DNA from: a virus | Lineage: Duplodnaviria > Heunggongvirae > Uroviricota > Caudoviricetes | Reading direction: 5' to 3' (one strand) | IMG/VR virus record: IMGVR_UViG_3300046779_001955 | Span: 10,116-74,115 of that record | Length of the DNA stretch: 64,000 bases | Shown: piece after piece, positions 2,658 to 32,399 of the stretch | How positions within the stretch are numbered: the first letter of the stretch is position 1 | Layout: the number at the start of each line of letters is the position of its first letter | Notes under the pieces: generated by a model | What the model was told of the DNA's origin: nothing | The model's database searches: none | What the model saw: only the letters and a program-made list of their open reading frames with translations | Translations under genes and position numbers: made by a program

Positions 2658-3719
2658 TTAGAATTTTTGATCAAGTGGTTTTGGCCGACGTTGGTTGCCA
2701 AATGCATTGATATAGTGTATGAGCTTTTGGTAAGATCCTGGTTTAGGAGATTTCCCAATTAAGTCAAGATATGATTCCAGTCCTTGGTATTGACTAGTGT
2801 CAAGATTTAGATTAGGGCCATCCCAACTCATTAAGCTCATGTAATCAGGTTCAATAAGAGGTATTATGGTGTGGTTAACACCTTTGCCTTGAGCATACGC
2901 AACAACTTCTGGTAGATCTTGTATGTTTAAAATACTCAATGTAGTGTGTAGTTCAACATAGTTGGCACACATAATATACTGATCAATACTGCTAGTTACT
3001 TCGAGCCAGTTGGAATCATATCTAATCCAACTGGCTCGTTCTCCAACAGCATCAACACTGATGAACACATGTATTTCCTTCCATGCCTGTTTTAAAATTT
3101 CAAATAGTCGAATATTCTTTGTGCCATTAGTGGTAATTTCTAACTTGGTACGAGTGGAATATCCTTCGGTCAATAAAAAATCCACAAATTGTAACACCAA
3201 AGGATTGTAGGCCGGCTCACCACCTTGTATACAAATGGTAACATCGTCGTGGTAGTTATAACTTTTTAATATATTGTTTTTTAAGTTATCCCAATGTGAT
3301 TTGAACTCGGTATTGGGGTTGGAAAACGTCACATCCAATAGTCCTGCATGTTCTTTGTGTTTTTGGATTTTAGAACTGTAGTTTTCGTTACAAGTCCAAC
3401 AGGCCAAGTTACATGCACTTCCAAAGTTTATACTCCATTCTCTCGGATATGCTGGATTTACAATTGGATTGAGTTTGTTGATGCTGGTGCGCATACTAGC
3501 ACCGGTGCGTTCTTGTATAGCACAATTTTGGCATTCAGGTGGAAACTGCTCGTATTGAAATTGTTCTTTAAACTCATTGAACCGATGATTGGTGTTCCAC
3601 CAGTGATCAAAATCTTGATTGTCGCTGACAATCTCAGGATTAACAGCACAGCAATTTCTATACTGTCCATTGGGCAACACAAAGGCTCGAACAAAAGGCA
3701 TTACGCAAAAGGGTTTCAT
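2658..3719 (-). CDS. radical SAM enzyme with Cys-rich N-terminal extension
   Basis: CNLACWTC (CX3CX2C) core, GGEP SAM-binding motif; N-terminal CxxPF-x12-G-x4-CC ... CxxC resembling an auxiliary-cluster (SPASM/twitch-like) motif. Confidence 0.85.
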   Translation of the reverse strand: MKPFCVMPFVRAFVLPNGQYRNCCAVNPEIVSDNQDFDHWWNTNHRFNEFKEQFQYEQFPPECQNCAIQERTGASMRTSINKLNPIVNPAYPREWSINFGSACNLACWTCNENYSSKIQKHKEHAGLLDVTFSNPNTEFKSHWDNLKNNILKSYNYHDDVTICIQGGEPAYNPLVLQFVDFLLTEGYSTRTKLEITTNGTKNIRLFEILKQAWKEIHVFISVDAVGERASWIRYDSNWLEVTSSIDQYIMCANYVELHTTLSILNIQDLPEVVAYAQGKGVNHTIIPLIEPDYMSLMSWDGPNLNLDTSQYQGLESYLDLIGKSPKPGSYQKLIHYINAFGNQRRPKPLDQKF

Positions 3720-4867
3720 AGAAGTTTTGCCAGTGTGCTTAGATAATTTCCTGTGTTCTTTTGAGCACTTAATAAGTCAAGTAAATCAGGATTTTGTCTA
3801 GCAATAAGTTTTTTACTAATTGCCGAATTCAACATTTGATCAATTTGATCTTTCCATGGCAACATTAAAAATTGTTTTAGAATGTTGATATCTCTCAATG
3901 GCGTAAAGGTCAAGGTGTTGCCAAGATGCCAGTGTTGGTGATCATTAGCAGCACATTCTAAAATGTGTTTGCGTAATGCCATAATATCAGATACCGGATG
4001 ATCTACTTGGCTTTGATACTTTTTCTGATTGTCTTCAATCATAAAGTACTCCCGATGCAGATAATTTTGATTTTTCAGCAGCTGATTTATTGAAGTACCA
4101 TGATGCATTGCCAACAAGTTTCCCATCTCAGGATTGCGCAAGGTAAATTCGTCTCCAGGGCATCCACTTACCAAAACAGTGGGCTTGATCCAATGGTGCA
4201 TTTGTTTGTAAGCCCAGTGATTAGATACTATAGTGTGATGATTACATACCCAAAAACGATCAAATTCAAGGTGTTCAGCTAATACTACTTCGTGTGGTAT
4301 TTCTAGTTTTTGTAAGTAACCCAACATCAAAGTAGTGTCAATACCACCACTCAGAAATATTTTTACTGGAAGATTATTGTAACTAAAAAAGTAATCAAAT
4401 TTTTCTGTTAGTATCTCATCAACATATTCAATCACCTCATCAACAGTTCTCTCTTGGGTTGGTACCTCAGTGATAACGTCAACACCGTCAGTTTTGAATG
4501 TAAGATCCTTGTTTAAAGTCAGTAAACTATCGGCAAAAATCTTTCGACTGAGTGGACAAAGATTTGTTACACCAAAGTTAGGATCATACCACAGTGGAAA
4601 ACTTCGGTACAAACTATGACGAACTTGAGCAGTTTCGTCAGATAAAATTATAATACAGTAGTTTCCACTTCGTGTAACATTGTTGTCAACAATATTGTAA
4701 ATTTCTAGATCAAGATCACCGTGATCAAGATACCCTTTGTAAGCTATAGTTTCTCGATTATGCTCAAGTATATTCCAACCTTGATCCATGTCAAGATGCC
4801 AACCGCGATGGTAATGTCCGTTGACACTAAAATTTAACTTTGGTGATCTGCTAATTGAAAAAAACAT
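3716..4867 (-). CDS. asparagine synthetase-like PP-loop ATP pyrophosphatase (amide/lactam synthetase-like), no N-terminal Cys nucleophile
   Basis: SGGIDTT PP-loop motif mid-protein (~res 172) as in AsnB C-domain; N-domain lacks Cys2; 4-nt overlap with radical SAM gene. Confidence 0.7.
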   Translation of the reverse strand: MFFSISRSPKLNFSVNGHYHRGWHLDMDQGWNILEHNRETIAYKGYLDHGDLDLEIYNIVDNNVTRSGNYCIIILSDETAQVRHSLYRSFPLWYDPNFGVTNLCPLSRKIFADSLLTLNKDLTFKTDGVDVITEVPTQERTVDEVIEYVDEILTEKFDYFFSYNNLPVKIFLSGGIDTTLMLGYLQKLEIPHEVVLAEHLEFDRFWVCNHHTIVSNHWAYKQMHHWIKPTVLVSGCPGDEFTLRNPEMGNLLAMHHGTSINQLLKNQNYLHREYFMIEDNQKKYQSQVDHPVSDIMALRKHILECAANDHQHWHLGNTLTFTPLRDINILKQFLMLPWKDQIDQMLNSAISKKLIARQNPDLLDLLSAQKNTGNYLSTLAKLL

Positions 4868-5454
4868 TATTGTCTCTTGTTTATGACTTTATCTGCTAGT
4901 CCGTATGCCACAGCATCTTCGGCGGTCATGAAATTGTCTCGTTCCATATCCTTTTCAAGTTCACTATAATCCTTACCAGTGTGCGTAGCGTAGATATCAG
5001 TCAAAACTTTTTTCCAACGCAGCAATTCTCGTGCTTGAATTTCAACGTCAGTTGCTTGCCCTGATGCACCACCTAGGGGTTGATGAATCATGTGTCGAGC
5101 ATTGGGTAGAATGAACCTGTGTCCGTGTGCCCCGGCCATTGCCAGTAAAGAACCCATGCTGGCTGCTTGGCCCAACACAATAGTATGTATCGGACAACGC
5201 ACAAATTGCATAGTATCATAGATACTCATACCTGCTGTGACACTGCCGCCCGGTGAGTTAATGTAAAAATTAATGGGCTTGTCAGGATCTTCGCTTTCTA
5301 GGAATAGCATTTGAGCTACGATCAGGCTAGCTGAGTGACTTGAAACTTCGGTATCTAGCATGATTACACGGTCCTTTAGCAGCCTAGAATAGATATCATA
5401 GCTGCGCTCGCCCTTGGAAGTGTGCTCGATTACTATGGGAACCAGGTTTGGCAT
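4867..5454 (-). CDS. clpP: ATP-dependent Clp protease proteolytic subunit ClpP
   Basis: [23 protein letters not shown] motifs; start at ATG 5454 with AAGGAG SD (ORF-track start 5511 is an upstream extension). Confidence 0.95.
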
Positions 5455-5482
5455 TACGTCTCCTTGTTTAGATAAGTAAAGT

Positions 5483-5511
5483 ATTATAACATAACATCCA
5501 ATGATACGCAA
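5483..5511 (-). promoter_or_regulatory. candidate promoter for clpP (TTGCGT-17-TATAAT)
   Basis: revcomp TTGCGTatcattggatgttatgtTATAAT upstream of clpP SD. Confidence 0.4.
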
Positions 5512-7069
5512 GATTCTTGATCAACTCAGCTTTTTAACTGAAAGTACTGGTTTAGCCAATCGCAAACCCGGTGATGTTTTTGCCGATCCTGAAGGCAACG
5601 AGATACGTTTTCAAAGTATTGATTTCTTTCCCCCTGGTGGTGGCAAATATCAAACATCTGAAGAAACACAGAAAGCCATTGACATTGCAATCAAATCTAT
5701 TGGCGTAACACCAATAGAAACAAATTGGTTTCGTGGGTCAACTCGATCATTTGGCATAGCACAATTCCAAGATGCACAAGGGAATCCCTTGGCATTTATT
5801 AGATATTTTGACAAAGAACTTAGTGCTGATCCTAGAGGTAACTATTGGGATAATCAAGGGGGTATACCAGGCTATCGCTATCAGGGCAAAGCTGCTGTAA
5901 AAACTCAGAGCAACGCCACGCCCCAGGATATTTTGACTCAACTAGATGATCTAACTCCTGCAGATATTTTGCGTCAAGTCGAAGAAAAGTTCCCAGGTAG
6001 TAATTTGGTAACAGTTACACAGCATTTGGTGTCAGGTGGTGAGTTACCATTTACTTTTATGCGGCCGCAAGAGATGGATATCTCGGCATTTCAAGATTAT
6101 TTTTGTGAGCTATTACAACCAATCGCGCTACAAACCGGACAGTTTGAAGGTGAAGCTGCGGCTGCTGCATTGGCATTTTTGCCTGATGGAGGTTTTTCTG
6201 ATACTACTATTAACTTCAGTACCAGTAAGACCGAAGGACTCAGTGATTCTATAATGACTGCTCCCGATGGCAGATCAATCAAAGTCAGTAGCAAGGGAGG
6301 TAAAGGTGCACCAGCTTCAGTGGTCAACATTCTCAATGCCTATGACGAATTACAACGCACAGCCAACGGACGCAAATTAACTAAAAAACTAATCAACACA
6401 GTTGAAATTCTCAACACAATCAAAAACACAGGCCAGGCTGAAGGTCCGTTGGTGTTGGCACAACAGTTTGGTATAATCACAGAAAAAGACGCAGAATTTA
6501 TTCGAGCACTCAAGCAAGTAAGACCTTTGCCCTTGGACTCTTTCAAAGATGTCAGTATCAGAGGTAAACAACCTTCTAAAAACCTTGTAAAACTAGCCAA
6601 GGAACGCAACACTAAAGAACCCATGCAGGTAAACTTCTTTTACCATCTCATGGCCAGTGTTGCTTTCAAGGTAGCTGACTATGTCAACAACAAAACTGAT
6701 TTCGGCAAAGATACTGCTGTTATTCTCAACAACAGTGCCTTGATCCAAGTCTACACCAAAGTAACAGCCCGTGGACAACAATGGACATTGCAAAAGTTTG
6801 GTAGTAAGTGGCCTGGATCTATATTCAGTCCCATTGCACTTGATCCTTCCAAGTCATATTACAGCACAGGAATCAAACAAAAATTTACTTTTGATATGAA
6901 GCCTAGAAAGAAATCTTTAGATGATCCACAATCAGCTCATGCTGATATATCTGATCCTGACACTGAATTCAAACGCAGCAAAGTAAAAGCAGCGCAACCT
7001 GAATCACCGCTGGGTAGTGAAAAAACTCTAGGACGTCGCAGACGTCAACGTGCAAATACTGATACATGA
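5501..7069 (+). CDS. hypothetical 522-aa protein (plus strand, between the two clpP paralogs)
   Basis: long uninterrupted ORF; Arg-rich C-terminal tail RRRRQR; no recognised motif. Confidence 0.6.
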
Positions 7070-7611
7070 TCAGTGATATTAAATTTCTGTGCTTCTTCGG
7101 CGCTGAGCCAAATATCTTGCGGTGGTAGCAAATACGTGCGTATATCATCTTCGCTCATACCAGTACACTGTTGATAGTGATTAAGCATCCTGGTCTGTGT
7201 TAGATCAAATTCTTTGATCCTTGCAAATAATTCGTGTGCCTTGCCATCACTTTCCCAAGTAAACTGATGGCTCAATATTGATGTGTTAGGAGTTAAAACT
7301 CTACGTCCTGGTGCACCCGATATAAAGATCAGCAGTGCTGCCGAAGCAATTTGTCCCAGGCCAACTGTTTTAATTGGGGTCGGTGAACTCATCATTACAT
7401 CAATAAGAGCAAAGGCCGCGCTCATGTCACCACCCTCGCTACATATCATCAACAGTAATTCTTTCTTCTTTCGTCGTGTTACATAATTAGATTGAAGAAT
7501 CCATTCAATAACTGGTTTAACACTGTCTATGGTGATTTCTCCCATGAGAAGAAACATTCCCGAATCATTTATCGAAGACACTGCTACTTCATCATCTTTT
7601 TCTGCTGTCAT
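7045..7611 (-). CDS. ClpP-family protease paralog (ClpP2-like), catalytic triad apparently intact
   Basis: SEGG, GQIASAA (Ser), LSHQF (His), Asp near C-term aligned to ClpP triad. Confidence 0.8.
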   Translation of the reverse strand: MTAEKDDEVAVSSINDSGMFLLMGEITIDSVKPVIEWILQSNYVTRRKKKELLLMICSEGGDMSAAFALIDVMMSSPTPIKTVGLGQIASAALLIFISGAPGRRVLTPNTSILSHQFTWESDGKAHELFARIKEFDLTQTRMLNHYQQCTGMSEDDIRTYLLPPQDIWLSAEEAQKFNITDHVSVFAR

Positions 7612-7627
7612 GTAATCTCCGTGAAAA

Positions 7628-7666
7628 AGCCCAAGTACATTATAACATGTAACTTGGGCTTTGCAA
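7628..7666 (-). promoter_or_regulatory. hairpin (8-bp stem, 16-nt loop) plus T-run overlapping a TTGCAA-16-TATAAT promoter
   Basis: minus strand GCCCAAGT...ACTTGGGC TTTTT after lipoprotein gene; loop carries TATAAT; upstream of clpP2-like. Confidence 0.4.
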
Positions 7667-7679
7667 CTAGATTTGGTTA

Positions 7680-8273
7680 TTATTCAGCTGCGCGATTGGC
7701 GTTGGCATCCAATTCTTTGGTGACATCAGCAGCACGAATTTCGGTGGCTTTACGAGCACGAATTCCATCTTTACGTGCTTGTAATTTATTAGCATCGCCC
7801 ATGGGCAAAGCCACCAAAACATAACTACGGAAACGAGTACCCTCGGCAATGGTTCGAGTGTCTACGATCTCAACACCAGTTACATCAACCTGTGGACACA
7901 TTGAACGAATTGCAGTTTCACTGAGTTCGCTGCCACCGCTTTCATTGTCCATCATAAAGACTTTACTTTGCTGATCAACCTTGCCGCCTGCTGACATACA
8001 AATTTTGCCCATTGCCATGAGTTTGGCTTTGGTACGAGCCATCTCCATGTCACGACTTACTGAAGTGCCGTTTGCATAAACTGCACTGTCTGAACTAGGT
8101 ACTTTCTCCATCCATGCCGGAGCCTTGTCAATAGCACGTTCAGCATACTTAACCTGGCGCTCGCGTTCAGCATCAGCACGTTTTTCAAACTTGTCATTGG
8201 TTGTACTACAAGCTGACAAAGTTGCGGCAACTGCTGCAACAAAAACCAATCGATTCAACATTTTATACCTCAT
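7680..8273 (-). CDS. lipoprotein (LPP20-like?)
   Basis: signal peptide with lipobox LSAC; 197 aa. Confidence 0.7.
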   Translation of the reverse strand: MRYKMLNRLVFVAAVAATLSACSTTNDKFEKRADAERERQVKYAERAIDKAPAWMEKVPSSDSAVYANGTSVSRDMEMARTKAKLMAMGKICMSAGGKVDQQSKVFMMDNESGGSELSETAIRSMCPQVDVTGVEIVDTRTIAEGTRFRSYVLVALPMGDANKLQARKDGIRARKATEIRAADVTKELDANANRAAE

Positions 8274-8395
8274 TATTTAGAAGAAATCCAATCGCCAACA
8301 CGACCTAAGTCTTTGCCAGCACCACTAATTGTACCACCTATTGTGCCACAGGCTGCTAGGCTTGTAACTAATAGGGCCAAAACTACAATACGCAT
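8273..8395 (-). CDS. small entericidin-like lipoprotein (40 aa), absent from ORF track
   Basis: MRIVVLALLVTSLAACGTIGGTISGAGKDLGRVGDWISSK; lipobox LAAC; G-x-G-x-D-x-G-R/N pattern like EcnA/B; TAATG overlap with downstream gene. Confidence 0.55.
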   Translation of the reverse strand: MRIVVLALLVTSLAACGTIGGTISGAGKDLGRVGDWISSK

Positions 8396-8419
8396 AAGAC
8401 CTCCATTGTACACGATAAA

Positions 8420-8986
8420 TTAAAAACGGTCAACCACTACCCATTCATTGGCATTGAGTTCGCATACAACACCTTGATATTGGCGCAGATGATCTCGATC
8501 CCAAGCTGGTTCCAGGAACCAACGACATTGCACACCGTTGTGCCAAAAACGATCAGGATAATTTGGATGGGGTCTAAATTGACTAGACTTACCAATCATA
8601 CCCGGCGATGTTTTTTTAATCATGTCAGCATCGGGATTGTCTGAGCATATCATTACTGAATCAGTAACAATTTGTTTTTTGCTCACACGATCGCGTACAT
8701 CGCGTTCGGCTTGCTGCACAGCCTGCGCACACATTTCGGTGCTGGGACGATTGCCATCCCATGTAACTTCACCGTGAGCCGGATGCCACTCGTTATTGAT
8801 TCGAGCACGAAACTCCACTGTACATTTCTTGCCACCGTTGACATCAGGTACTACCGCACGTCTCAAGTCGGCTCGTTCTTGGATGGTTACCTGTGTTCGA
8901 CTCACTGTTTTATCTTGCAAAACACAGTCAGCAGCACTGGCAGAAAGTGCAACCACACTCAGCAATGTTAGATATTTTACGGACAT
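8420..8986 (-). CDS. secreted/periplasmic protein
   Basis: signal peptide (ALSASAADC); 188 aa; several Cys. Confidence 0.6.
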   Translation of the reverse strand: MSVKYLTLLSVVALSASAADCVLQDKTVSRTQVTIQERADLRRAVVPDVNGGKKCTVEFRARINNEWHPAHGEVTWDGNRPSTEMCAQAVQQAERDVRDRVSKKQIVTDSVMICSDNPDADMIKKTSPGMIGKSSQFRPHPNYPDRFWHNGVQCRWFLEPAWDRDHLRQYQGVVCELNANEWVVVDRF

Positions 8987-9324
8987 TCTCTAAGTTCCAT
9001 TAACAGTTGATCAATAAGCCAATTGGTACGTCCACTACTGGATTCGATACGTCGATAATAGTGTTCACCGTCAGTAAACTGTTCCCATGGACGAGTCAGG
9101 TTAGTAAACTTTGCAAACAACATATCGTCAGCACTCATTTTCATTTGTTGCAACATTGCTACTTGTTGCTTTTTGATTTTGCAATTGACTCTAAAAGTGT
9201 CTAAATCGTAAATAGCCATTGGTTCTCGAATCGGAGCACCTGCACAACCCACAAGATTACTAGCGATTGCAATTATAGCGAAGATGCCACATACGAGCTT
9301 TGTACTGACCTTTGCGCTGTTCAT
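8977..9324 (-). CDS. lipoprotein
   Basis: signal peptide plus lipobox LVGC. Confidence 0.6.
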   Translation of the reverse strand: MNSAKVSTKLVCGIFAIIAIASNLVGCAGAPIREPMAIYDLDTFRVNCKIKKQQVAMLQQMKMSADDMLFAKFTNLTRPWEQFTDGEHYYRRIESSSGRTNWLIDQLLMELRECP

Positions 9325-9499
9325 ATTGCTCCTTGGATTCTAGTTTGTATTGAGCTTCATTTGCATAGTGTTCAAGGTATCGTGCCAACTGTTGTTGATT
9401 CAGACAATCATTTGGAACCAATGCAGTGTCCAAAGGCGGAGAAATACTTGGTGTCACGCAGCCTGCCAACGGCAGGCAGGCAATTAAAAGCCATCGCAT
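9260..9499 (-). CDS. lipoprotein
   Basis: internal start MRWLLIACLPLAGC (lipobox LAGC); ORF-track N-terminal extension to 9601 doubtful. Confidence 0.5.
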   Translation of the reverse strand: MRWLLIACLPLAGCVTPSISPPLDTALVPNDCLNQQQLARYLEHYANEAQYKLESKEQYEQRKGQYKARMWHLRYNCNR

Positions 9500-9675
9500 T
9501 CTTGACCTCGCTTGTTGTGTTTGTCCTGACGTTGATATGCACGACGGTTCCGTTCTACGTGCCCACGGAACGGGGTATTGGCCCCATAGAGCTCTACACA
9601 ACGACGTCGTTGCCGCGGTACTCTAAACTGTATATTTTGTGTTTTCATAATTGAAAATCCCAGTTAATGTACACA

Positions 9676-9704
9676 ATTATACACAAACTGGGATTATTGG
9701 TCAA
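9676..9704 (-). promoter_or_regulatory. sigma70-like promoter TTGACC-17-TATAAT
   Basis: revcomp TTGACCaataatcccagtttgtgTATAAT upstream of lipoprotein cluster. Confidence 0.6.
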
Positions 9705-9713
9705 TGGTTGCTT

Positions 9714-9926
9714 TTATACTAACGAATTGTGATTTTTGTAAGTGTATTCTCGTATCCAATGCTCAATGTCAGCTGGGCTTTTGGCACCTTTGAGAACTAG
9801 GTACTTCTCGAGGTCTGTCTGTGACCGACTATCTAACCATTCCCGTACACGTTCTTGGGCACGTTCCATCATTTCTCGGAGGCTAGCAGACATGATAAAT
9901 CGTTCTCCGAAGATAAGTCTCAGCAC
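9714..9926 (-). CDS. hypothetical protein
   Basis: 70-aa ORF; start uncertain. Confidence 0.4.
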   Translation of the reverse strand: MLRLIFGERFIMSASLREMMERAQERVREWLDSRSQTDLEKYLVLKGAKSPADIEHWIREYTYKNHNSLV

Positions 9927-9989
9927 GTCGTTGTCGTGCTTTGATCATTGACTCTATTAGAGAATCAACCAATTTTTTTATTTGACTCA

Positions 9990-10233
9990 TTATGTCTTGA
10001 CCTTGGCTTCTTTGGCCGCTGGCACCACTACCTGTTTCAATGATTCAGTGTAGGCTGTCCACGCATCATTTTGGGCACGAGCAAATTCAAAGCTGGCTTT
10101 GTGCACCACTTCAGCTGCTGAACGAACTTGTTCAGGCAAATAGGTAAGTGCAGTTTTTGCAGTTTTTTCCACTGAGTCAATGACTTCAGAAGCTTTGATT
10201 ATTTGAGTTGAATAAAATTTAGTAAAGTCCATT
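9990..10233 (-). CDS. hypothetical helical protein
   Basis: start at MDFTKFY with AAGGAG SD; Ala/Lys-rich helices (phasin-like look). Confidence 0.5.
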
Positions 10234-10309
10234 TTGGTCTCCTTGTAGTAAGCGAGCAAATCGAACAGCCCGACCTTTCGGCAATGTTCTTTGTTCAACT
10301 TTATTTAGC

Positions 10310-10338
10310 ATTATATTGTGCGTTGCAACAAAAATCAA
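10310..10338 (-). promoter_or_regulatory. candidate promoter TTGATT-17-TATAAT
   Basis: revcomp TTGATTtttgttgcaacgcacaaTATAAT. Confidence 0.45.
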
Positions 10339-10396
10339 GTATTTCTTTCGCCTTTTGTTACGGGATTAAATAATACATTGATTAAGGAGATTTGCA

Positions 10397-10663
10397 ATGG
10401 AACTTTTTATTTTATTGCTAGTGGTAATTGGAGCAGTTTGGTGGTTTACTTCGGTTGAGAACAAAGCAGAAGAATCGGGTCGTCATCCCTTGGATGGTAA
10501 TGTAACTAGACAAGAACCTGACTTAACCACAATACCTGATGGGATTGGTCATCAATCAATTACAGTTGCTCCGGTACTTACACAACAATTGGACGTACCT
10601 GCAACAGAATCAACTGCACCCAAAAAATCACGTAAACCTCGCGCTAAGAAATCAGCGGAGTAA
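10397..10663 (+). CDS. small membrane protein
   Basis: AAGGAG SD 7 nt upstream; N-terminal TM helix; basic C-terminus. Confidence 0.6.
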   Translation: MELFILLLVVIGAVWWFTSVENKAEESGRHPLDGNVTRQEPDLTTIPDGIGHQSITVAPVLTQQLDVPATESTAPKKSRKPRAKKSAE

Positions 10664-11674
10664 TTCTACAACTTGGTCTCGGGCAAGATTTTTGCCCTTG
10701 GCCTCACACTGTATATCCCACTGCTCTGCAAAGGTCAGAGCATATTCATTAACAGCCGAGTTCCAATAAAAGTCCGAGTGTGCTCGTAGCTTGCTCCGAG
10801 TGAAGCCTCTTGAAAGCAGTTGCTCAAGATTGGGTCTAGTACAGGGATCGTGATCCACCAAAAGATCTTCACGACTAACGCTGTAGTGAAGCACAGGGCG
10901 AACACCGCGCCAACTGTCCAAAACACGCTGCGCACGATCATCATCAGGAGTGATGTATTCTCCTGTTTTGACCCAGTGATGATGTATATCCAATGTAATT
11001 GGAACACGATGAATAACACCCAAAACAACATCAAGTCCATTTGTAATTTCATCATTCTCTATAGCGATTAGATTTCTAGCTTCGGGGGTCAATCTATCCA
11101 AAGTTTTTAGAAATTTGTCAGGCCCGCCTTTGCCTGACAAGTGTATGTTAATTTTAAATCCATGATCATGCCACTCAGCACCATAGCCCATCCATCGTGC
11201 AAGATCAACATGGTACTCAAACTCATCAATGCTGCGTTCAACAATATCATCGCTTTCACTTGCAAGAACACAGAACTGACCGGGATGGAAACTCAGACGA
11301 ACACCTAGTCTACGAGCAGCTTCGCCAACAGGTGCAAAAATTCGAGCACAATGATTTTGCACATCACTTTGCTGCCACCATTGTTGCCAGTCCTTTTCAG
11401 TGTAACCGTTGAGCATTTCTGAACCAAGACGAACCATGCGCTGAGTCTCAGGCAATGTGCCCACATGCTCTACCAGTGCTAATGCTGCTGCGGCATTATG
11501 GTTCATGATTTCAAACTGTCGTTGCTCGGCTTCGTCGCGATGCTCACGCAACCAGCGCATAGTAGTTGAACGTCCGTTCATGTGACGACTAGCCGACGTG
11601 GGTTTACGGCCAGCTACTTCTTCGGGATGATCTAGCCATTTGCAGCAAAAACCAATTTTAGTAGTGATAGGCAT
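10652..11674 (-). CDS. uvsE: UV damage endonuclease UvdE/UvsE
   Basis: SFHPGQF, NIHLSG, IENDE, DIHHHW blocks match the UvsE TIM-barrel family. Confidence 0.85.
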   Translation of the reverse strand: MPITTKIGFCCKWLDHPEEVAGRKPTSASRHMNGRSTTMRWLREHRDEAEQRQFEIMNHNAAAALALVEHVGTLPETQRMVRLGSEMLNGYTEKDWQQWWQQSDVQNHCARIFAPVGEAARRLGVRLSFHPGQFCVLASESDDIVERSIDEFEYHVDLARWMGYGAEWHDHGFKINIHLSGKGGPDKFLKTLDRLTPEARNLIAIENDEITNGLDVVLGVIHRVPITLDIHHHWVKTGEYITPDDDRAQRVLDSWRGVRPVLHYSVSREDLLVDHDPCTRPNLEQLLSRGFTRSKLRAHSDFYWNSAVNEYALTFAEQWDIQCEAKGKNLARDQVVELLR

Positions 11675-12098
11675 GAATTTTAGGTTTTACCTTTTCTTTA
11701 AGATATTGTAATTTTATACCACATTGTTGATAACCTTCGGCAATACCTAACACGTAACCCATTGACGGCGATCCAACAATGGGTCGTTGCATTTCGTAAA
11801 AGAAAAAATGCTCGTTGTCTTGACGCCAACGACGACGGTTATAGTATACTGGATAACCTTCGTATCGGTCAAGTGCTGCAATGTCCGAATCGGTTAGAAG
11901 CCAAAGAGCTCCGGGAACCACAGCACCGTGTTTTGGTACAATAGTAGCATGACTTCCAAATTCCAGTTCCCAACCTTTGAGATAAAACGATCGAACAAAT
12001 TGAGCGGTTGGGCACCGAAACGACATTTGGTTATGGTTCATGTTCGAGCCATAACCAAAATATAATTTTGGTAATTTATTAATAGATTTGAGTTTCAT
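11658..12098 (-). CDS. gamma-glutamyl cyclotransferase-like (AIG2/GGCT fold) protein
   Basis: YFGYGSNM motif near N-terminus. Confidence 0.65.
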   Translation of the reverse strand: MKLKSINKLPKLYFGYGSNMNHNQMSFRCPTAQFVRSFYLKGWELEFGSHATIVPKHGAVVPGALWLLTDSDIAALDRYEGYPVYYNRRRWRQDNEHFFFYEMQRPIVGSPSMGYVLGIAEGYQQCGIKLQYLKEKVKPKIHAYHY

Positions 12099-31586: not shown

Positions 31587-32399
31587 TTATCGAGTGTTAA
31601 CGATTGGTGTTGCGTTACCGATGATCATAGTACACTTGGAGTTCGCAGCACATTCTTCCATAGCCAATGCTTTCTTGTACTCGATCAACTGGTTGGTAAT
31701 ACTTTGTGTCAAGATGTTGTTGCGACGTGCAGTACCTTCGGCCTCGGCAACTACACGAGCAGCTTCGGCCTTGGCCAATTCAAGCTCGGCTTTCTTGGCT
31801 TCGATCTGTTTCTGCATCTGCACGTTGGCAAGAATACTGTTTTCAATTGCAGGATCTGTTATAACCTGACGCATTACAACACGAGTCACAGTAAACACAC
31901 CAGGATCCGATTTATCCAACTCAGCCTGCACATTTTTCTGTACAGCAGTAGCAACTTCATCACGGTGTTGGTGAATAGTTAGCGAATCGTGTTTGGCAAC
32001 TTCTTCATAAATTGCAGTGCGACTCAAATTCTCAACTAGTTGATATCCTGCGTACCAGTATCCATGTTGGCTACGTGCATTTTGTGCAGCGTACTTGGTG
32101 TAGAGTTCAGGAACTTTGGCGCCGTTTACTCGGTAGTAAACAGTCAAATCCATTTCTTTCAGCGTCAAGTTGTCCTTGGCCTTGGGTGTCATGTTGTCAA
32201 GATTTACAGCAGATTCTTTGGCAGTAAACTCTCGCACACTAGACAGCACCGCAAGATACATGCCGGGTTCAACAGGTTCAGCGTTGACTTTACCAAATGT
32301 AGTACGAACACCTACGTTGCCTTGGTCAATAACACCCATACAACCACCTAATATCAACGTAGTACCAATGACCGCTGTTGTAATTAAACCTCGATACAT
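31587..32399 (-). CDS. SPFH/band-7 (HflC/prohibitin-like) lipoprotein
   Basis: lipobox LGGC; SPFH core; C-terminal AEAE/AKAEAARVVAEAEG helix. Confidence 0.8.
   Translation of the reverse strand: MYRGLITTAVIGTTLILGGCMGVIDQGNVGVRTTFGKVNAEPVEPGMYLAVLSSVREFTAKESAVNLDNMTPKAKDNLTLKEMDLTVYYRVNGAKVPELYTKYAAQNARSQHGYWYAGYQLVENLSRTAIYEEVAKHDSLTIHQHRDEVATAVQKNVQAELDKSDPGVFTVTRVVMRQVITDPAIENSILANVQMQKQIEAKKAELELAKAEAARVVAEAEGTARRNNILTQSITNQLIEYKKALAMEECAANSKCTMIIGNATPIVNTR

Follow-up and report, generated by a model that had tools for sequence, protein, structure and literature searches.

The entericidins EcnA and EcnB of E. coli (ecnAB, PF08085) have been an unresolved 'programmed cell death' family of lipoproteins since 1998, when Bishop and colleagues reportedly described the bacteriolytic activity of EcnB. 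Phages make small outer-membrane lipoproteins of their own, such as the spanins (lambda Rz/Rz1 and the unimolecular T1 gp11), whose genes usually follow those for endolysin and holin; some phages of Gram-negative bacteria have no recognisable spanin. T5 Llp, Cor of phi80 and N15, and T4 Sp and Imm are phage exclusion proteins, Llp and Cor being the lipoprotein precedent. Here we describe a set of five genes, A to E, on the minus strand of a 64,000-nucleotide (nt) stretch of a virus record of the class Caudoviricetes (IMGVR_UViG_3300046779_001955, positions 10,116 to 74,115; hereafter the window). They form a conserved, widespread and uncharacterised phage envelope module, in which an entericidin-like lipoprotein of 40 amino acids (aa), D, is encoded next to an LPP20/SHS2-fold lipoprotein, E. 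D and E add new phage-borne branches to families already known, and A/B and C are unannotated families. Very probably the genes belong to a six-gene transcription unit that runs from a promoter at 9704 through orf54, A, B, C, D and E to a terminator near 7640, and whose products, all but the first, are sent to the host envelope (Table 1). Judged by title or abstract opening, none of the papers listed in a full-text literature search on entericidins and phages deals with a phage-encoded entericidin.

We compared 87 loci that carry E. On one strand, the order [A/B]-C-[T]-[D]-E is fixed in all 87, T being a 42-aa membrane peptide. With P for a member of the A/B family, the architectures are P-P-C-D-E (24 loci), C-T-D-E (21), P-C-T-D-E (11), C-E (7), P-P-C-E (6) and others (18); C and E are the core of the module. 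A scan of IMG/VR with a single protein found nothing, while an alignment-based scan recovered relatives, which lie on viral contigs of 200-356 kb. The module is common: the E profile yields 769 clusters at 50% identity, and homologs are present in SAR11 and OM43 phages, which are globally abundant, so that any function would apply widely. Among 185,579 bacterial and archaeal species genomes, the E family occurs on just two contigs from metagenome-assembled genomes (L087 and L088), indicating that the module is phage-specific. Their bins, Haliscomenobacter and Bacteroidetes, belong to the Bacteroidota; probably both are phage contigs that were placed there in error, because the sigma-70 consensus promoters and the lipoprotein and entericidin content point to a proteobacterial host.

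The T peptide (MKAFIAGTIFGLVLATVGFSGIARMLDKGVDTVKTQSQELAK) has a single membrane pass and lies between C and D in 41 loci (for example L007, 5735-5863), overlapping the start of D by 4 nt in L007, L016 and L023. It gave no family match, and a search for a counterpart in the window found none. Homologous C-T-E trios occur in the T4-like pelagimyophages Melnitz (Melnitz-3 gp74-76), Mosig (gp169-167) and HTVC008M (gp176-178), where homologs of C and E (E at 24-32% identity) keep the same order and strand. In contrast to the window, the middle gene of the trio encodes a different small transmembrane peptide that has no lipobox and is not an entericidin, A/B genes are absent, and E lacks the two internal cysteines. 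The trio genes are annotated as hypothetical only, and the Melnitz paper does not discuss them (PMC9004378). The curli csgGF genes of Melnitz (PMC9004378) were rejected as the module, being different genes a few kb away.

Gene D is missing from the list of open reading frames (ORFs), and the preliminary description of this DNA took it for a genuine gene that relatives would share. This view is borne out. D lies directly upstream of E in 71 of the 87 loci, and gene callers give a 39-40-aa D gene in other assemblies of the same phage as well as in relatives whose E is 86%, 60% and 56% identical. The lipoprotein precursor, with signal peptide and lipobox, is conserved in 53 distinct homologs. Mature D, in the window the 25-residue CGTIGGTISGAGKDLGRVGDWISSK, is nearly fixed across homologs, while signal peptides vary freely, and no other part of the module is as well conserved; compared with L005, window D is 72% identical in its mature part by hand count, and window E 56% (to P0109). 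Within mature D, the third position varies in 24 of 25 codons, the first in 14 and the second in 11, with a mean proportion of synonymous differences (pS) of 0.60 against a nonsynonymous mean (pN) of 0.21. Judged by this codon pattern, D is a real gene under purifying selection.

The description had also called D entericidin-like, which holds well for the family and less well for the window copy. PF08085 is matched by 21 of 31 D-family members (best E-value 1.7e-5), P0127 carries it, and hhalign of the D-family profile gives 96% probability with EcnB and with EcnA, both E. coli sequences being entered by hand. In contrast, window D scores 15.6 bits against PF08085 (E-value 0.016), below the gathering score of 23.3, and gave no entericidin match in NCBIfam. 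D resembles EcnA and EcnB in being made as a lipobox-bearing precursor, here of 40 aa, that yields a mature peptide of about 25 residues, and its core G-x-G-x-D-[IL]-x3-G-x2-I aligns to both. Two types can be told apart: type 1, that of the window, reads CGT[IV]GGxVSGAGxDLxxAGxWIxxx, and type 2, which has the classic entericidin look, reads C[SG]TVAGVGKDIQSSAEWTKEKMGGK. Unlike the entericidins, D is phage-encoded, and each of the 87 loci has at most one D gene with no paralogous toxin or antidote partner; the window type carries a 4-residue glycine-rich insert (IGGT) after the cysteine and a conserved tryptophan, and entericidin activity is predicted only. From sequence, D is thus best described as a divergent entericidin-family lipoprotein. 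LptM, VirB7 and Myco_arth_vir_N were rejected as identities for D, their weak matches being confined to the signal peptide and lipobox.

Wherever it occurs, D adjoins an LPP20-type gene, at a distance from E of at most 12 nt, so the two are probably co-translated. A phage-fixed entericidin that always sits beside an LPP20-fold partner offers a concrete pairing for probing the role of entericidins. The TAATG overlap of D with E that the preliminary description noted does exist in the sequence; E more likely starts at ATG 8261, which has a GAGG Shine-Dalgarno sequence, agrees with 193-aa gene calls and aligns with the N-termini of homologs.

E is an LPP20/SHS2-fold lipoprotein, and its close homologs (n=613) are all unannotated. 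Its AlphaFold model (mean predicted local distance difference test, pLDDT, 70.6) shows a beta-alpha-beta-beta core between long charged helices, so that, as modelled, E combines the lipoprotein nature and the SHS2 core fold that define LPP20 (PF02169). Window E itself gave no match to PF02169 in Pfam; among its relatives the family was matched by 3 of 28 close ones, weakly, and by 31 of 61 distant ones (best E-value 3.9e-8). Between the SHS2 helix and the second strand lies a 40-residue insert with two conserved cysteines, at the site where ring-forming SHS2-fold members carry inserts, and the C-terminus is a charged helix (residues 163-196). E differs from LPP20, FlgP and FlgT (PF02169; PDB 5ok8) in being phage-encoded, in having its core flanked by long charged helices, and in that its insert is helical and clamped by the two conserved cysteines, whereas theirs is a beta-hairpin.

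Genes A and B overlap by 65 nt (9260-9324) in different frames; the overlap is 68 nt in L003 and 28 nt in L005. Automatic gene callers shorten B to 80-91 aa and thereby lose its signal peptide, while the long form has a lipobox in all relatives. This case shows that routine gene calling loses or truncates 40-aa genes and genes with overlapping starts. Whether started from A or from B, iterative hidden Markov models (HMMs) arrive at the same family of small lipoproteins, present in about 50 loci, with two conserved cysteines and the motif ...P[ND]DCxN...IWxLRYxC. On this convergence we take A and B to be paralogs in a new small-lipoprotein family. For A, B and C, searches of Pfam, PHROGs, NCBIfam and PADLOC gave nothing significant. 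C has two confidently modelled domains, beta-beta-beta-alpha followed by an SH3-like one; structure searches with it returned generic fold matches only, and a viral structure library returned uncharacterised homologs of C only. A few C relatives show a weak match to 17kDa_Anti_2 in the SH3-like C-terminal domain. The preliminary description overlooked the conservation of the module, the membership of E in the LPP20 family, the paralogy of A and B, and orf54 as the first gene.

Signal sequences were judged by eye, from the n-region, h-region and lipobox pattern and from retention in homologs. They read, with a slash before the first mature residue, MRWLLIACLPLAG/C in A, ...IAIASNLVG/C in B, MRIVVLALLVTSLAA/C in D and M(RYKM)LNRLVFVAAVAATLSA/C in E; C has a signal peptidase I type site, MSVKYLTLLSVVALSASA/ADC. 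All five genes lie in a row where the preliminary description had placed them, and its calls of a signal peptide in each and a lipobox in four agree with ours, a lipobox or signal peptide being retained in all homologs of the module proteins. When a lipobox regular expression was run on all ORFs of the 64-kb window, it gave nine matches, B, D and E among them; of the remaining six, only that at 31587-32399 belongs to a long ORF. A, with its cysteine in a short h-region, was missed by the expression and added by eye. Four lipoproteins within 1.8 kb, against few elsewhere in the window, indicate that the clustering is not due to chance.

None of the four lipoproteins has an aspartate at position +2. 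The Lol sorting rule of E. coli directs such lipoproteins to the outer membrane, which predicts a place in its inner leaflet for A, B, D and E. C is predicted to be a soluble, disulfide-bonded periplasmic protein. Conserved cysteines other than the lipid anchors come in even numbers (two each in A, B and E, six in C), which fits periplasmic disulfides.

The single best-supported role for the module is at the outer-membrane step of lysis, to which we give a probability of roughly 35%, because lysis genes are its neighbours in three lineages and EcnB is bacteriolytic. L009 (4943-7238) and L024 (158-2517) carry, in order, a Hydrolase_2 endolysin (PHROG 938, with a hydrophobic N-terminus), a membrane protein of 103-107 aa with about three hydrophobic segments that we read as holin-like, a type-2 D, E, and a 218-aa cysteine-rich secreted protein. 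In Melnitz, a Hydrolase_2 endolysin gene follows E so closely that its start overlaps the E stop codon, and a homolog of the holin-like protein (L001, 1210-1473) lies two genes downstream of a GH108 lysozyme. Since this membrane-protein family is found close to two unrelated wall hydrolases, it is most simply read as a putative holin. D and E of L009 and L024 thus stand at the place after endolysin and holin that spanin genes take, and like spanins they are small phage-made lipoproteins of the outer membrane. The module is conserved in phages as different as jumbo phages and T4-like pelagimyophages, which speaks more for a core role in the life cycle than for an accessory one. By the lipobox expression, no other o-spanin-type gene is visible in the 64-kb window, the sole other gene-length lipobox ORF (270 aa, 31587-32399) far exceeding o-spanin size.

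If the module acts in lysis, its proteins would gather under the outer membrane during infection and act at the final step, either destabilising the outer membrane after the wall has been cut or timing that event. D would be the membrane-active element, like EcnB in E. coli, and E with C and A/B might form a scaffold or restraint that holds it; the module would then replace or supplement a spanin. Since some lineages encode it next to an endolysin and a holin-like gene, this outer-membrane module is a candidate for the missing spanin function. More speculative is a spanin-free lysis device, common to uncultured jumbo phages and pelagimyophages, in which D (or, in pelagimyophages, the transmembrane peptide that replaces it) would be held and released by an assembly of E, C and A/B; we consider this version tentative.

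Several observations weigh against a role in lysis. In the window, as in some 84 other loci, neither an endolysin nor a holin adjoins the module, and most loci surround it with DNA-metabolism and protease genes and no wall hydrolase; a phmmer search of the window with six endolysin queries, of limited sensitivity, detected no endolysin. The preliminary description's proposal of lysis as a candidate function is thus supported by the three lineages and not by the surroundings in the window. Its o-spanin-like reading fails. Between 7400 and 10800 no inner-membrane partner was found, and the whole window lacks the T peptide, which makes spanin-style membrane fusion impossible. A two-component spanin includes an inner-membrane partner with a long coiled coil, which the window lacks, and T of the relatives is just 42 aa; unlike an o-spanin, mature D has no proline and no cysteine beyond the lipid anchor; and unlike a unimolecular spanin, E has no C-terminal transmembrane segment. 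Furthermore, D is missing from 16 of the 87 loci, only C and E being near-universal, and with a net charge of +1 it is not cationic, whereas the lytic peptide of phage phiKT is. The promoter, of the class found before the ligase gene, points to early expression, but this is weak counter-evidence, as T4 too has its spanin and endolysin genes in early regions. The wall hydrolase next to the module could instead serve assembly of a periplasmic complex, and a lysis model leaves the roles of A, B and C unexplained.

The DNA-metabolism and protease neighbours and the early-type promoter would also fit a protective function. The complex might stabilise the outer membrane and wall, or block host envelope stress or entericidin-type suicide, with D acting like the antidote EcnA and the cell kept intact through a long jumbo-phage cycle. 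We regard such envelope maintenance as unlikely, though a serious contender. Its sigma-70-like promoter is of the class shared with the DNA ligase gene, the module lies among UvdE and a ClpP-like gene (67 of 87 loci), and hhalign rates antidote EcnA and toxin EcnB equally. The LPP20-fold proteins FlgP and HP0838 are linked to outer-membrane rings and barrier function. Recurrent neighbour clusters include one that matches Pfam Band_7 (SPFH) and one that matches Bax1-I, these matches having been assigned to specific ORFs by sequence inspection. At L074 10015-10710 and L052 6567-7496 we observed a Bax-inhibitor-1 (BI-1)/YccA-type seven-helix protein (seven loci in all) and an SPFH/Band 7 protein directly downstream of E (six loci). 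Together with ClpP, the BI-1 and SPFH neighbours suggest a theme of membrane quality control. The window itself contributes the 270-aa ORF at 31587-32399 (minus strand), with a lipobox-like N-terminus LILGG/C; its product is 25% identical (E-value 3e-11) to the relatives' neighbour protein taken as the Band_7 match, gave no PDB sequence match, and is probably a phage SPFH lipoprotein. However, SPFH and BI-1 neighbours occur in few loci, and the endolysin and holin-like genes next to the module in L009, L024 and Melnitz would go unexplained.

Superinfection exclusion, in which early outer-membrane lipoproteins and a periplasmic protein would mask a receptor or block the DNA entry of later phages, appears somewhat less likely still. 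An early-type promoter, lipoproteins predicted for the outer membrane, pelagimyophage homologs that lie in the T4-like early region near RNase H, and the precedent of Llp and Cor, likewise early-made phage lipoproteins directed to the outer membrane, all agree with it. Receptor-masking proteins known so far come from single genes that evolve fast and each target one receptor, whereas here five cooperating genes in fixed order, with a near-invariant mature D, recur across distant phages and host classes. No sequence or fold relationship links the module to Llp or Cor: similarity to Llp is not significant, PADLOC gave no match, and the apparent likeness to T5 Llp (PDB 8a60_B) was rejected, as its matches (E-values 0.03-0.7) are confined to the signal-peptide region (residues 1-20 of D, 1-40 of E). 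That the small ORF and the lipoboxes are accidental and the run no functional unit is a negligible prospect, for although window D falls under the Pfam gathering score, A and B overlap and callers disagree on the start of B, synteny in 87 loci, the codon pattern of D, and the conserved lipoboxes, cysteine pairs, promoter and terminator already refute it.

Table 1. Positions of the module genes, their signals and the recurrent promoter class in the window.
Feature	Position	Strand	Remarks
Operon promoter TTGACC-N17-TATAAT	9676..9704	-	sigma-70-type, 11/12 match, best in region
orf54, 54-aa basic protein without signal peptide, first gene	9484..9648	-	ORF conserved in L003/L004, L089
Gene A, 79-aa lipoprotein, lipobox LAGC, +2 Val	9260..9499	-	lipobox and Cys pair conserved
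Gene B, 115-aa lipoprotein, lipobox LVGC, +2 Ala, AAGGAG ribosome-binding site	8977..9324	-	
Gene C, 188-aa secreted periplasmic protein (predicted), ASA/AD site, six invariant Cys	8420..8986	-	
Internal promoter-like site TTGACC-17-TACAAT, C/D junction	8405..8433	-	10/12 match
Gene D, 40-aa entericidin-family lipoprotein (predicted), lipobox LAAC, +2 Gly, GGAGG ribosome-binding site	8273..8395	-	
Gene E, LPP20/SHS2-fold lipoprotein, lipobox LSAC, +2 Ser	7680..8273 or 8261	-	197 or 193 aa
Intrinsic terminator hairpin and T-run after E	7624..7662	-	predicted fold, then TTTTT
TTGACC-N17-TATAAT sites, exact form, n=6	466, 1477, 9704, 31201, 33171, 35650	-	
Remaining two sites of at least 11/12	26561, 4794	-	

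The promoter that the preliminary description assigned to the run is there; the first gene it drives is orf54, so the unit has six genes. At a threshold of at least 11/12 the window holds eight such sites, all on the minus (coding) strand, against 2.1 +/- 1.3 in shuffles, and members of the class often read TTGACCAAT(A/T)A. In seven of the eight cases a ribosome-binding site and start codon follow after about 25-35 nt, one of the class preceding the DNA ligase gene; the site at 4794 lies inside the ORF at 3716-4867. The sites are probably early promoters for host RNA polymerase. A 10-bp palindrome (9695-9686 and 9665-9656; AATCCCAGTT...AACTGGGATT) flanks the -10 hexamer of the operon promoter. 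L003 retains both promoter and palindrome, with compensatory changes in the two arms (TCCAGTTA/TAACTGGA), and the palindrome may be an operator or a 5' hairpin.

The product of orf54 (MKTQNIQFRVPRQRRRCVELYGANTPFRGHVERNRRAYQRQDKHNKRGQECDGF) is very basic, and its gene overlaps the start of A by 16 nt. Homologs are a 53-aa gene in L003 and L004 and a 54-aa gene in L089. The sole family match is a weak one to DUF7230 (E-value 0.0034), and an ArfA-like identity was rejected as unsupported. At the C/D junction, the -35 element of the internal site falls within the V-D codons of the conserved C-terminus WVVVD(K/R)F of C, and a TATAAT ahead of the start of D is retained in L003, L005 and L018, marking a putative internal promoter. 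The terminator region, a 76-nt stretch (window 7685-7610) followed by TTTTT, has a minimum free energy of -24.1 kcal/mol; L003 has the identical sequence, and in L005 another strong hairpin takes its place.

With a G+C content of 42%, the window looks like part of a large lytic phage. It also encodes UvdE, two ClpP-like proteases, ribonucleotide reductase, an ATP-dependent ligase and radical-SAM enzymes. The nearest relatives of its UvdE are jumbo-phage copies, with 46% identity to that of phage NCTB. Megablast of 5000-12000 against 50,697 cultured phage records found no near-identical relative, and the clade is uncultured; protein E recurs unchanged on metagenome contigs of up to 86 kb. A ClpP-like cluster follows E in 67 of the 87 loci, often in two copies. 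In the window the ClpP-like pair (7045-7611 and 4867-5511, minus strand) lies on either side of an opposite-strand 522-aa gene. A promoter-like site with an upstream TG (TTGCAA-16-TATAAT, 7666-7639) falls within the stem and loop of the terminator hairpin and precedes the ClpP-like gene at 7611-7045.

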